Assembly: GCA_964344965.1 (NCBI GenBank)
Contig: CAYFPJ010000004.1
Location: forward strand, 11,532-75,531
Origin: an uncultured Gammaproteobacteria bacterium
Lineage (GTDB): Bacteria; Patescibacteriota; Patescibacteriia; Magasanikbacterales; UBA922
Direction of reading: 5' to 3'
DNA length: 64,000 nucleotides
Shown here: piece by piece, positions 19,248-25,011 of the stretch
Layout: every line of letters begins with the position of its first letter
Position numbering within the stretch: the first letter of the stretch is position 1
Made by a program: the position numbers and the translations under genes
The notes under the pieces: generated by a model
Told to the model about the DNA's origin: nothing
Databases searched by the model: none
Seen by the model: only the letters and a program-made list of their open reading frames with translations

Positions 19248-19958
19248 ATGGATAGAACAGAACCAGGAGGACCAAATCCAGAACAACTAGCTAAAGAAGA
19301 GCGTGAAAAGCATCTCAGAGAAACTACAGAAATACTGAAAGAAAAAGATAATAGGAATCACAAACTGTCTATTGAAGGATGGAGGCTTTTGGCAGAGCAC
19401 GAAGATTATGAAACTTATAGAAATATGGGTTATAACATTTTATATCAATTAGAGGTTGGGCTAGTCAGTAGACTATTCGGTGGCCCTGAAAATCTGAGAG
19501 GGAAAACTATCATACTTCTTGGTGGGGCAAAAAACTTTAGAATAAAGGATAAAAATAGTAGAGCAAAAAATTTATCACCAGCAGAAATACTCGCATTGCA
19601 TGGAGCGAAAGTGATTGTTGTTGATTTATATATCGACAAAAAAGATTTTTTACCAATACCAGGCATTACTGTCTTAGAAGGTAATCTAAAAGACCTAAGC
19701 CTAGAGAAAAAAGCAGACTTGCTAGTAACCCAATCTGTTTTCACAAACAGAATGGCACCTGATTTTTTCAATGAAACATTAGAGGCTTCGAAAGATCTGG
19801 CATTGCTTCAAGCTCATATTTGTGCCCAATTTGAATCCCCTTACCCTAAATTAAAGGAAGAAGAATTGCCTGGAAAAGTACTATTTTGTGACACAAAAAA
19901 AGAAGGTGAGGGTTTTAATGGTCGCACACATTTTCTCATTATAGACAATCAAGAATAA
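19248..19958 (+). CDS. hypothetical protein
   Basis: 236-aa ORF with no recognised motif. Confidence 0.5.
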   Translation: MDRTEPGGPNPEQLAKEEREKHLRETTEILKEKDNRNHKLSIEGWRLLAEHEDYETYRNMGYNILYQLEVGLVSRLFGGPENLRGKTIILLGGAKNFRIKDKNSRAKNLSPAEILALHGAKVIVVDLYIDKKDFLPIPGITVLEGNLKDLSLEKKADLLVTQSVFTNRMAPDFFNETLEASKDLALLQAHICAQFESPYPKLKEEELPGKVLFCDTKKEGEGFNGRTHFLIIDNQE

Positions 19959-20035
19959 GATATATAAAAACTTGACAACAAACTTGACAACAATCCCACA
20001 TTGATCTAAAATACAAAAACTTACAACCAAACCAC

Positions 20036-20252
20036 ATATATTACGGAAGTGAGGTGAGATTCCTCCACTGTGCCGCAACGGTAATTGGTCTTCCTAGTCT
20101 TCACGGATAAGCACCTTGTAAAAAGGGACTTGTCCGGCGAAGCTTTAGCGAAGCCGGAGTCCGGTCTGTGTATATGTGCAATTCCCGAGCAGGAAAACAA
20201 GTAAATTGTCTTTACTTTTTGCCATCTTCCTGACTCTCTGGAAGATTTTTTT
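20036..20252 (+). promoter_or_regulatory. candidate cobalamin (B12) riboswitch with an intrinsic-terminator expression platform
   Basis: GGUGAGAUUCC, GCAACGGUAA and a B12-box-like AGCCGGAGUCCGGUC element resemble the RF00174 core; hairpin TCTTCC-N8-GGAAGA followed by T7 at 20225-20252; lies upstream of DUF4430 genes. Confidence 0.55.
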
Positions 20253-20261
20253 ATACTAAAA

Positions 20262-20368
20262 ACGTCATTGCGAGGAGTCTGAAAGAACGACGTGGCAATC
20301 TCAGTGTCTGTAAGTAAAAACGCGAGATTACCACGTCGTGTGGCTTCGCCCACCCCTCGCAATGACGA
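20262..20368. mobile_element. MITE-like element M1 with 15-bp terminal inverted repeats CGTCATTGCGAGGAG / CCTCGCAATGACG
   Basis: Homologous copies at 43314, 44727 and 47153; inserted between the riboswitch terminator and the first gene of the cluster. Confidence 0.8.
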
Positions 20369-20398
20369 AAATATTTACCAAAATCAGTCAATAAATTT

Positions 20399-21040
20399 AT
20401 GCAAAACACAAATTCAAAAATCCTTATCTTTGCGCTATTACTCCTACTTGCTGGAGCTGCTTGCAACCAAATAACAATACCAGAATCTCCATATGAATCT
20501 GATAAATCAGAAAAGATTGAAATAACAATAGATTCAGATTTGGAGATAGAACAAGTACCAAAAGTAGAAGAAGAGCTCCCGCCTGATGACACTCCCCCAC
20601 CAACTATAGTAGAAAAAAAAGTAGAAGAAAAACTGGAAATAGAAGATGGGTCCACGGCGCCAATAGATGTAGTCCCGCAGAAGCAGTCAAGGAATTATGA
20701 AAGTAAATACAAGAATAACACAGATAAAGAAAAAAGAGATGTGCTGATAACCTCATTTCTAGTACAAGACGAAGAGTATAATATAGAAATTCCCGAAGGT
20801 AGTACAGGCTACGATCTAATGCAGAGTGCTAGTACCCAATCAAATTTCACTTTCTCTGCCAAAAATTTTCCTGGTCTTGGTTATTTCATTGAAGAAATCA
20901 ATGGTCAAAAAAATGATCATATGAAAGGAATCTACTGGATTTATTATATCAACGGCGAAAAAGCAAAAGTAGGTATATCGAATTATTTATTAACTAATGG
21001 AGACATAATTGAATGGAAGTATGAAAATGAAAAATTTTAA
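20399..21040 (+). CDS. DUF4430 domain lipoprotein (transcobalamin beta-domain-like)
   Basis: Signal peptide with lipobox (LLLAGAAC); C-terminal DUF4430-like region YWIYYINGEKAKVGISNYLLTNGDIIEWKYE. Confidence 0.6.
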   Translation: MQNTNSKILIFALLLLLAGAACNQITIPESPYESDKSEKIEITIDSDLEIEQVPKVEEELPPDDTPPPTIVEKKVEEKLEIEDGSTAPIDVVPQKQSRNYESKYKNNTDKEKRDVLITSFLVQDEEYNIEIPEGSTGYDLMQSASTQSNFTFSAKNFPGLGYFIEEINGQKNDHMKGIYWIYYINGEKAKVGISNYLLTNGDIIEWKYENEKF

Positions 21041-24017
21041 ACCACTCCTGACAGGAATATTTATAATTGCAATACTAATCGCTCAACCCACTAGTGCAGA
21101 AGAGGTCAATATAGAGATGACTGCAAATAGTGAAGAAATTGTGGTGGAATCAATTGCAATAATATCTGAAGAAGAGATCATCCCAGATGATATTTTCATT
21201 ACAAATGAAAATATCACTGAAATGCAGAATGATGTTTCTGAAAATGAAACTAAATTTATCTTCGAAGAAACAATAGATGGTAATAATTTCGAAATAATTG
21301 CTGATGTCAGTAGTGGGAATAAAACAACTACATTCAGTATAGAAAACCTTTCAGATGCAGTTGCGATAGATTCTGTAGAACTCGAAGAAAAAAATGCTGA
21401 AGAAGATAACACAGGTACAGATATTCAAGATGAAAAAAATATAGAATCAAACATAGAAACCACCACCATCCACCTCCAACTAGAAACTATCGACGGTACC
21501 ATATTTGATAAAGAAGATTATGTGGTGGAAAGTTGTGAGTATGCTGATCAGTATGTCCTTACTGCTTGGTGCGCAATCCAGCAAGTAGCTGAAGAAGAAG
21601 GTTTGGGGCTGGATTATACAGATTATGGTGGTGATCTTGGTATATTTTTGGTATCAATCACATCAGATTTTGGTACACACAATTATCCAAGTTTCTTTGT
21701 AAATAATGAATGGGGACCCGGTCTTAGCAACTATCATTTACAAGAATATGATCATATTTTACTTGTCGGAGAGACATACCCCCTAAAACTAGATGTATCC
21801 ACGACTACGCCAGAAATAGGTACTACTACGACCATATCTGTCTATGAGGCAGGTTATGATGAGAATTGGAATGCTGGTTGGTTTTTGTCTGTGAGCAGTA
21901 CAATACTTGTCAATGGAGAAACCGTAGACAGTGACAGTGGAGTTTATCCGCTTGATGTTACCACTACTAGTGAATATCTGGTCCATGCTGTGAAAGATGG
22001 ATTTGTGGGGACTGGGGAGTTGACTATTAGTCCTTATAAAATAGAGGAAGCAGCTGCAGAGGTCATAAACTACCCCACCACCACCATCCACCTCCAACTA
22101 GAAACTATCGACGGTACCATATTTGATAAAGAAGATTATGTGGTGGAAAGTTGTGAGTATGCTGATCAGTATGTCCTTACTGCTTGGTGCGCAATCCAGC
22201 AAGTAGCTGAAGAAGAAGGTTTGGGGCTGGATTATACAGATTATGGTGGTGATCTTGGTATATTTTTGGTATCAATCACATCAGATTTTGGTACACACAA
22301 TTATCCAAGTTTCTTTGTAAATAATGAATGGGGACCCGGTCTTAGCAACTATCATTTACAAGAATATGATCATATTTTACTTGTCGGAGAGACATACCCC
22401 CTAAAACTAGATGTATCCACGACTACGCCAGAAATAGGTACTACTACGACCATATCTGTCTATGAGGCAGGTTATGATGAGAATTGGAATGCTGGTTGGT
22501 TTTTGTCTGTGAGCAGTACAATACTTGTCAATGGAGAAACCGTAGACAGTGACAGTGGAGTTTATCCGCTTGATGTTACCACTACTAGTGAATATCTGGT
22601 CCATGCTGTGAAAGATGGATTTGTGGGGACTGGGGAGTTGACTCTATCACCAATAACAACGACAGGAGATCAGACAGAAGAAGAAATAGAAGATGATCCT
22701 CCTGGCAATGGCGGGAGCGGAGGAGGCACTTCAAAACCAAATACAGAAACATCTCTAGAAATAATGATTAACAAAGCTTTTGAATACTTGTATAATGAAC
22801 AGCTGGAAGATGGCAGCTTTGAGATAACTCCATTTACAGACTGGGTGGCGATTGCCTTTGGTAAGTATGATTTTTCTGATGATCTCTTTACAACAGCAAA
22901 AAATAATTTAAAAACATTTCTGCAAGATGTATCTGAAAATGAATTAACACTTTTAACTGATTATGAACGGCACATCCTTGCCCGATCAGCACTTGATCTT
23001 GACGGGTATATTTACCAACAAAATATTTTAGATAAATTTGATGGTCAGCAATTTGGTAGTCCCGCTTTGATCAATGATGATATATTTGCTATTATTTCTT
23101 TGTGTGAAATTGGATACTGCATAAATGAGATAGAAACTGCGGCTGAAAATATCCGGAATGATTTTGTAGCTGATAATTTTTATGGTATTGATCTGACTGC
23201 TGCGGCCATTCGAGCTTTATTATTTATATATCCAAGCACAGATGAAGCTATTGCAAATGCCAAAGTACATCTCCAGAAAAACCAAGAATTAGATGGTGGA
23301 TTCAATAGTGAGGACGGAAGAGTAGATTCCACTAGCTGGGTAATGGATGCCATTGGTAAGATTGGCGATACTAGCTTTGACGGATGGACAAATAATGGTA
23401 AAACACCTTTGGATTACCTATCTGAAGTTCAAAATGACGATGGTAGTTTTGGAGAAACCAACAAAGTATGGTCTACAGCCTATGGTCTCATAGCTCTATC
23501 GCATGACTGGTCACTAGAGCCTGGCACAGAAAATAATCTTGTCAACGAAGATGAAACTACCAAAGAAAATAATTCTACAAATCAAAGTAGTGGATCAAAT
23601 ATTGTCATAAATACTACCACTACTACAGAAATAATGATTGACGAGAATCCTACTTCTACTCTTGATTTTATTATTGAGACCCCAAACAGCACTCCATCTT
23701 CAACTACCAAAGCAGAACAATCGGAAGAAAGCAATGATGAAGAAAAAAAAGGTAATGAAAATGTGAATAATAAGTCTACCAAAGACACAGTTTCTGTCGA
23801 AATAGTTCCTGAAGTGACACCAGTGAGGGCAATACTAGGTAAAAAAATTAATGACCAAGGTAATAGTATCGAAAAAGAAATAATAACTGATGAAAAAAAT
23901 GAAAAACAAAAAATAGTGCCAGTAAAAAATGAAAATAAATCATTCATAAATATAATCATGAACTTCATTTACAACATATTTTCTTCTGGTTTAAAATTTT
24001 TAAGTAATCTGATATAA
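21009..24017 (+). CDS. large secreted/anchored surface protein: signal peptide, acidic region, 2x (DUF4430-like + Ig-like) modules, Gly-rich linker, alpha/alpha-toroid (prenyltransferase/terpene-cyclase-like) domain, Thr/Ser-rich stalk, C-terminal TM anchor
   Basis: 1002-aa ORF; internal near-identical 206-aa tandem duplication; LEDGSFEITPFTDWVAIAFG... repeats resemble prenyltransferase alpha-alpha repeats. Confidence 0.7.
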   Translation: MNGSMKMKNFKPLLTGIFIIAILIAQPTSAEEVNIEMTANSEEIVVESIAIISEEEIIPDDIFITNENITEMQNDVSENETKFIFEETIDGNNFEIIADVSSGNKTTTFSIENLSDAVAIDSVELEEKNAEEDNTGTDIQDEKNIESNIETTTIHLQLETIDGTIFDKEDYVVESCEYADQYVLTAWCAIQQVAEEEGLGLDYTDYGGDLGIFLVSITSDFGTHNYPSFFVNNEWGPGLSNYHLQEYDHILLVGETYPLKLDVSTTTPEIGTTTTISVYEAGYDENWNAGWFLSVSSTILVNGETVDSDSGVYPLDVTTTSEYLVHAVKDGFVGTGELTISPYKIEEAAAEVINYPTTTIHLQLETIDGTIFDKEDYVVESCEYADQYVLTAWCAIQQVAEEEGLGLDYTDYGGDLGIFLVSITSDFGTHNYPSFFVNNEWGPGLSNYHLQEYDHILLVGETYPLKLDVSTTTPEIGTTTTISVYEAGYDENWNAGWFLSVSSTILVNGETVDSDSGVYPLDVTTTSEYLVHAVKDGFVGTGELTLSPITTTGDQTEEEIEDDPPGNGGSGGGTSKPNTETSLEIMINKAFEYLYNEQLEDGSFEITPFTDWVAIAFGKYDFSDDLFTTAKNNLKTFLQDVSENELTLLTDYERHILARSALDLDGYIYQQNILDKFDGQQFGSPALINDDIFAIISLCEIGYCINEIETAAENIRNDFVADNFYGIDLTAAAIRALLFIYPSTDEAIANAKVHLQKNQELDGGFNSEDGRVDSTSWVMDAIGKIGDTSFDGWTNNGKTPLDYLSEVQNDDGSFGETNKVWSTAYGLIALSHDWSLEPGTENNLVNEDETTKENNSTNQSSGSNIVINTTTTTEIMIDENPTSTLDFIIETPNSTPSSTTKAEQSEESNDEEKKGNENVNNKSTKDTVSVEIVPEVTPVRAILGKKINDQGNSIEKEIITDEKNEKQKIVPVKNENKSFINIIMNFIYNIFSSGLKFLSNLI
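21459..22650 (+). repeat. near-perfect tandem duplication (2 x 618 bp) inside the 21009-24017 CDS
   Basis: Copy 1 begins at 21459 and copy 2 at 22077; about 574 bp identical at nucleotide level before divergence at 22033 / 22651. Confidence 0.9.
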
Positions 24018-24415
24018 TGAATTACACTCCAAAAAAAGTCAATATGTATACAAAATTAGGTAAAATTGGAATGGTAATTACCACTGTACTAATCATTGGT
24101 GTTGGATGCAATAGTGTCAAAAAAATCACCTATATTTATAACGTAGAAATCTTCAAGTCAGACATGTATTCTGATACTCATAAGATAGAAATGGAAAAAG
24201 ATAACACAAATCTAGCAGTTCTAACAAAAAAAATTGATCCAGAAGCACAAACACAGTCTATAAACGGACAAGAAACAGTGACAAAGCTAGAAGGAGTAAT
24301 CTCTACTCTCAGCAAAGAATGGAAAATATATATAAATAGTACTAGTCCAGAATTCATTAATCTTGCCGACGTGACGGTCCAAGCTTCAGACCAGATTGAA
24401 TGGCGCTACGAATAA
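24017..24415 (+). CDS. small DUF4430-like protein
   Basis: 132-aa ORF with N-terminal TM/signal; C-terminal ...QASDQIEWRYE pattern like the DUF4430 proteins upstream. Confidence 0.5.
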   Translation: MNYTPKKVNMYTKLGKIGMVITTVLIIGVGCNSVKKITYIYNVEIFKSDMYSDTHKIEMEKDNTNLAVLTKKIDPEAQTQSINGQETVTKLEGVISTLSKEWKIYINSTSPEFINLADVTVQASDQIEWRYE

Positions 24416-24423
24416 AAAATATT

Positions 24424-24960
24424 ATGAAAGATAAAAATAAAGTGTTGATAGTCCTTTTATTAATTCTAATTGGAGCCTCAGCCAGATTATTCCCACACCC
24501 TGCCAACTTCGCTCCAATCGGAGCGATAGCAATATTCGGAGCACTGTACCTGCCGCGAAAAATTGCTCTTGTTGCTCCCCTACTAGCTATGTTTGCTAGT
24601 GACATCTTCATTGGATTTTATAGTTGGCAGATGATGGTGGCAGTGTATTTTGGGTTTGTAATCATGGGGATGATTGGTCTTCAAGTCAGGAAAAATAAAA
24701 AATTTAGTACTATTCTCGGCGGGACCTTACTAGGATCTTTCCTATTTTTCTTATTAACCAATGCTGCTGTTTGGGCTTTTGGGACCATGTATACTCTTGA
24801 TCTATCTGGACTAATGCAGAGTTATTACATGGCTATTCCGTTCTTTAGGAACAGCCTTGCCGGTGATTTATTTTATACTGCTGTACTAGTAGGTGCTTTT
24901 GAAGGATTGCAATATTATTATAGGATTCAGAATACAAAAAAAGAAATCTTGAATTCTTAA
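24424..24960 (+). CDS. polytopic membrane protein, putative ECF-transporter S-component-like (5-6 TM)
   Basis: ~178 aa, hydrophobic throughout; genomic association with DUF4430 genes and the riboswitch. Confidence 0.45.
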   Translation: MKDKNKVLIVLLLILIGASARLFPHPANFAPIGAIAIFGALYLPRKIALVAPLLAMFASDIFIGFYSWQMMVAVYFGFVIMGMIGLQVRKNKKFSTILGGTLLGSFLFFLLTNAAVWAFGTMYTLDLSGLMQSYYMAIPFFRNSLAGDLFYTAVLVGAFEGLQYYYRIQNTKKEILNS

Positions 24961-24980
24961 ATCATACAAATAATATTATA

Positions 24981-25011
24981 AAAAACTCTCTTAAATTAAG
25001 AGAGTTTTTTT
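24981..25011. terminator. bidirectional intrinsic terminator
   Basis: Hairpin ACTCTCTTAA-A-TTAAGAGAGT flanked by an A-run and a T-run. Confidence 0.7.

Follow-up and report, generated by a model that had tools for sequence, protein, structure and literature searches.

Scavenging of vitamin B12 by bacterial surface proteins resembling transcobalamin, built from SLBB domains and an alpha/alpha toroid, was predicted computationally by Burroughs, Balaji, Iyer and Aravind (2007; PMC1796856). The operon p1 to p4 described here (Table 1) lies in a 64-kb window, i.e., the whole stretch of DNA that was analysed, from a reduced-genome bacterium whose closest named relatives are Candidatus Magasanikbacteria. 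As in the previously reported systems, secreted SLBB (= DUF4430) domains occur in one protein with an alpha/alpha toroid and Ig-fold domains, further SLBB paralogues are encoded in the operon (a second one in both cases, and here also a third), and the host is expected to lack B12 synthesis. By contrast, the operons of Burroughs et al. generally contain CbiO/CbiQ, that is an ECF module, whereas the DUF6580 protein p4 is the sole membrane component here and no ATPase is found nearby; moreover, riboswitch control and a Patescibacterial host are not described in that work, and the Patescibacterial setting of a B12-scavenging operon is a new element. Compared to the soluble mammalian carriers transcobalamin, intrinsic factor and haptocorrin, p2 is cell-associated, shows the reversed domain order (beta-like before toroid) with interposed Ig modules, has a duplicated SLBB module accompanied by additional stand-alone SLBB lipoproteins, and gave no Pfam match to PF01122.

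With regard to transport, two characterized proteins are closest to p4. BtuM from Thiobacillus denitrificans (6FFV/8OVV; PMC6072759) is a solitary S-component-like B12 transporter, whose Cys80 is essential as cobalt ligand and serves in decyanation, whereas p4 is free of cysteine, belongs to another Pfam family, shows only 11% identity with no sequence-level match, and is accompanied by DUF4430 lipoproteins instead of BtuB. The B12-specific S-component CbrT of ECF-CbrT from Lactobacillus delbrueckii (6FNP; PMC5997447) resembles p4 in size and fold class, but it requires EcfAA'T and is a member of PF12822, and the similarity to DUF6580 is marginal. The original prediction of a cobalamin scavenging cluster is supported by our analysis: quite probably, the operon is repressed by cobalamin and enables a Patescibacterium to capture vitamin B12 or related cobamides from its surroundings and to import them, with the operon products presumably both binding and transporting the ligand.

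Table 1. Features of the operon, its leader and its flanks (positions within the window).
Feature	Position	Strand	Remarks
Sigma-70-like promoter	19984..20012	+	TTGACA, 17 nt spacer, TAAAAT; consensus match 11/12
Cobalamin riboswitch aptamer	20029..20178	+	RF01482 match, own model R1, covariation, orthologous leaders
Aptamer closing helix	20033-20044 paired with 20168-20178	+	
Aptamer hairpin GGAAG...GGUGAGAUUCC	20048-20069	+	
Aptamer invariant core CUGUGCCGCAACGGUAA	20068-20084	+	
Expanded P6-type insertion	about 20085-20157	+	Lineage-specific
B12-box-like GGAGUCCGGUCUGUG	20156-20170	+	CCG 20161-20163 pairs with CGG 20079-20081
P13-type hairpin UUCC-CGAGCA-GGAA	20182..20195	+	CGAGCA loop: proposed kissing-loop partner (L13) of aptamer loop UGCCG (20071-20075)
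Intrinsic terminator	20224..20252	+	AUCUUCC, 9-nt loop, GGAAGAU, then U-run; read from sequence
Inserted palindromic repeat element, 105 nt	20263..20367		Terminal inverted repeats CGTCATTGCGAGGAGT; between terminator and p1 start codon
p1, lipoprotein	20399..21040	+	Lipobox ...LAGAAC, Cys22; acidic Pro/Glu-rich linker; C-terminal DUF4430/SLBB domain, residues 134-209
p2, secreted multidomain protein	21021..24017	+	998 aa from ATG 21021; ORF to TTG 21009 = 1002 aa
Tandem duplication in p2	21459..22694	+	Two 618-nt units, 21459-22076 and 22077-22694
p2 alpha/alpha toroid, 12 helices	22752..23516	+	NDDIFA motif conserved in family
p3, small lipoprotein	24017..24415	+	Lipobox IGVGC; divergent DUF4430-like domain
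p4, six-helix membrane protein, DUF6580	24424..24960	+	178 aa from ATG 24424 (public gene call); ECF S-component fold
Perfect 15-nt inverted repeat I10	24980..25010		100% complementary; A-run and T-run flanks; directly 3' of p4 stop codon

The leader (20029-20195) is a genuine, if divergent, cobalamin riboswitch, and this subtype missed by Rfam is a new element of the finding. Rfam at the gathering threshold returned no match across the whole window; in a permissive scan of 19900-20450 the AdoCbl riboswitch RF01482 was matched at 20028-20139 with 32.9 bits (E = 2.9e-4), under its gathering threshold of 50 bits. The score is low because the expanded P6 region is misaligned to RF01482. The three motifs on which a B12-riboswitch-like core had been predicted were located at 20053-20063 (GGTGAGATTCC), 20075-20084 (GCAACGGTAA) and 20152-20166 (AGCCGGAGTCCGGTC). 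In common with RF01482 (clan CL00101), the leader has the GGAAG...GGUG(A)...UCC hairpin, the core CUGNNCCGCNAC with which a B12-box-like 3' strand pairs, the closing helix, a 3' hairpin with CGAG-type loop (UCGAGGC in the consensus) and a transcription terminator platform; it differs in the lineage-specific P6 expansion of roughly 75 nt and in L5/L13, which read UGCCG/CGAGCA as compared to CCC/CGAGG-type in the consensus. Orthologous leaders exceeded the Rfam gathering thresholds for RF01482 (L002 and L015) or RF00174 (L019 and L020). In an alignment of 13 leaders, a 25-pair consensus structure was 83.8% paired as compared to 30-46% in slid controls, with covariation of 0.53 versus 0.07-0.20 and double-sided changes at 20 pairs; the C-N-G/C-N'-G core pair occurs in three types, namely G-C, U-A and A-U. 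Our own covariance model R1 detected the window leader as its sole match in the window (94.5 bits) and recovered L017, on which it had not been trained (80 bits), as well as an Rfam-validated Bacteroidota riboswitch (37.7 bits). The closest relative, L001, carries an identical promoter sequence ahead of its leader.

Downstream of the aptamer, CGAGC is invariant in 13/13 aligned leaders, and one compensatory L5/L13 change was observed, in the Bacteroidota leader L019a; from this we infer a kissing loop between UGCCG and CGAGCA. The leader's own terminator, also part of the original prediction, was found as a hairpin with U-run that is conserved in L001; the automatic scan missed it because of its 9-nt loop. 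As an alternative to this hairpin, its 5' arm and loop can pair with P13/L13; the resulting antiterminator is also the fold of minimum free energy when the platform is folded by itself. Following this, we propose that transcription starts at approximately 20020 and that, at low B12, P13/L13 would pair with the terminator 5' arm and loop, allowing RNA polymerase to read through. With B12 in the aptamer, UGCCG would dock on the CGAGCA loop and lock the P13 hairpin, upon which the terminator could fold and the operon would be switched off.

All four predicted genes exist as open reading frames. For p1, predicted as a DUF4430 lipoprotein, Pfam DUF4430 (PF14478) was matched with E = 2.3e-17 and the lipobox residue at position 22 is the sole cysteine. 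The proposed resemblance of DUF4430 to the transcobalamin beta-domain was likewise borne out: the p1-family profile matches the beta-domains of haptocorrin (4KKI, E = 0.002), intrinsic factor (E = 0.0065) and transcobalamin. Pfam itself did not detect DUF4430 in p2 and gave no more than a weak, sub-threshold match in p3 (E = 0.01), and therefore profile-profile comparison was needed. By hhalign, the p1 domain matched the N-terminal half of the p2 repeat (95.8%, E = 6.6e-9) and p3 matched the p1-family profile (95.8%, E = 6.8e-9; hmmsearch E = 5.5e-7), so that profile similarity places both p3 and the p2 repeats among the DUF4430-like domains, as predicted. The NCBI gene call places the p3 start at 24044 (123 aa).

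The exact p2 protein is present in the public record with 998 aa from ATG 21021 and not the predicted 1002 aa; the predicted C-terminal anchor found no clear support from hydropathy. Following the signal peptide, p2 comprises an acidic N-terminal region, two units of DUF4430-like plus Ig-like modules, a Gly/Ser linker, the toroid and a low-complexity C-terminal region. The duplicated units are identical over 567 nt (21459-22025 = 22077-22643), each beginning with the DUF4430-like module (21459-21776 and 22077-22394). An AF2 model of residues 357-840 reached a pLDDT of 90.3, with secondary structure fitting the DUF4430-like and Ig-like units; at a pTM of 0.58, its inter-domain geometry is unreliable. 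The toroid fold is confirmed in this model. As regards its predicted resemblance to the N-terminal domain of transcobalamin, nine of 27 p2 homologues match the eukaryotic Cobalamin_bind family PF01122, which p2 itself does not, and the best structural matches of the p2 toroid are terpene cyclases and not B12 carriers.

The prediction of p4 as a polytopic, ECF-S-like protein of about 178 aa agrees with its match to DUF6580 (Pfam, E = 3.7e-48) and with its S-component fold, for which the BtuM-cobalamin complex was the top structural match; a loop motif R-x-x-P-H-x-x-N-F is invariant. We found no mention of DUF6580 in the literature, and the family, which here has no ECF module in its vicinity, is probably the third B12-linked family of S-component-type transporters and a further new element. 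The operon products may thus act as an extracellular relay: p2 would reach out from the cell, its two transcobalamin-beta-like (SLBB/DUF4430) modules and toroid sandwiching the cobamide in transcobalamin fashion, the membrane-tethered p1 and p3 would hand the ligand to p4, and p4 would move it over the membrane, most likely needing no ECF module of its own, like BtuM, or alternatively using a shared module encoded elsewhere. Riboswitch identity and structure, domain identities, folds, conserved synteny and gene fusions are computational results; which ligand is carried, in what order it is handed over, how the kissing loop switches and what supplies the energy are parts of the proposal. Several points weigh against this reading: the sub-threshold Rfam score, terpene cyclases as best matches of the toroid, the reversed domain order of p2, the lack of a cysteine in p4, the related loci in which no riboswitch was found, and the result that Pfam analysis of the ten largest window ORFs and a Walker-A/LSGGQ scan of 33 others turned up no B12-dependent enzyme.

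The order p1-p2-(p3)-p4 is kept in about 16 Patescibacteria loci, and a riboswitch precedes the genes in 14 loci having enough upstream sequence, among them minimal versions made up of riboswitch and DUF6580 (Bacteroidota L019) or riboswitch, DUF4430 and DUF6580 (Saccharibacteria L020). Cobalamin-class riboswitch control is conserved over three phyla; in five related loci (L006, L009, L018, L021 and L023) the R1 search found no riboswitch. Gene fusions join the same parts: P0185 combines DUF6580, an extra transmembrane helix and DUF4430, and P0146 an ECF S-component and a toroid.

B12 uptake as such would be unchanged if p4 were an ordinary group-II ECF S-component depending on a shared EcfA/EcfA'/EcfT module encoded elsewhere, a possible reading that we hold to be the less probable one. 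CbrT uses such a module and was the sole sequence-profile match of DUF6580 in the PDB, albeit marginal (E = 0.098), one DUF6580 member also exceeds the PF12822 ECF_trnsprt cut-off, and the usual linkage of SLBB operons to CbiO/CbiQ genes (PMC1796856) points the same way. Against it, solitary BtuM is the best structural match, and no EcfA-sized ABC ATPase adjoins the operon in 23 loci or occurs among the scanned window ORFs: the Pfam analysis and motif scan of these ORFs yielded no ECF module, and the only two ABC-like ORFs found, of about 500 aa each, are distant from the operon. Riboswitch-linked DUF6580 is, moreover, also present in Bacteroidota, where ECF modules are rare.

As for p2, an unlikely interpretation is that its toroid lies outside the B12 pocket as an enzyme or envelope-binding module (terpene cyclase/prenyltransferase-like, glycoside hydrolase-like or A2M-type thioester), p2 being a scaffold or adhesin in which only the DUF4430 modules bind. 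A2M and complement proteins do top the Foldseek list and a sub-threshold SQHop_cyclase_C is the only Pfam match of the toroid, but a motif check found neither DxDD (cyclase) nor CGEQ (thioester), a secreted protein is remote from isoprenoid substrates, and, beside the Cobalamin_bind matches, DUF4430 occurs in 15/27 homologues, the toroid being fused or adjacent to it throughout the family. Import of another tetrapyrrole or corrinoid precursor, such as heme or cobinamide, in place of complete cobamides is highly improbable. In a preprint, heme was modelled into transcobalamin-like alpha/beta proteins from an ECF-like operon of Lactobacillus sakei and proposed as the substrate, CbrT also binds cobinamide (PMC5997447), and a different metabolite may be scavenged by some of the archaeal SLBB proteins (PMC1796856); however, the riboswitch class, the sequence similarity specific to beta-domains of B12 carriers and the cobalamin complex as top fold match of p4 all argue for cobamides, and cobinamide uptake would still be corrinoid salvage by the same kind of system. 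It is hardly credible that the leader is a decayed, non-functional remnant, the operon being constitutive or otherwise controlled. The sub-threshold Rfam score, the large P6 insertion and the mobile palindromic element 3' of the terminator would fit decay, but the misaligned P6 accounts for the score, insertions are confined to positions of variable length across the family, the R1 score lies inside the range of other leaders, and the invariant core nucleotides, closing helix, CGAGCA hairpin and terminator are all intact and near-identical to L001.

The palindromic element consists of the nested inverted repeats I6 and I7, is missing at the corresponding site in L001 and has four copies within the window, where 9 matches to its arms compare with 0.26 expected; it has a folding energy of -52.8 kcal/mol (z = -7.6). 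At the opposite end of the operon, the inverted repeat I10 is probably a bidirectional terminator closing the operon, as judged from its sequence.

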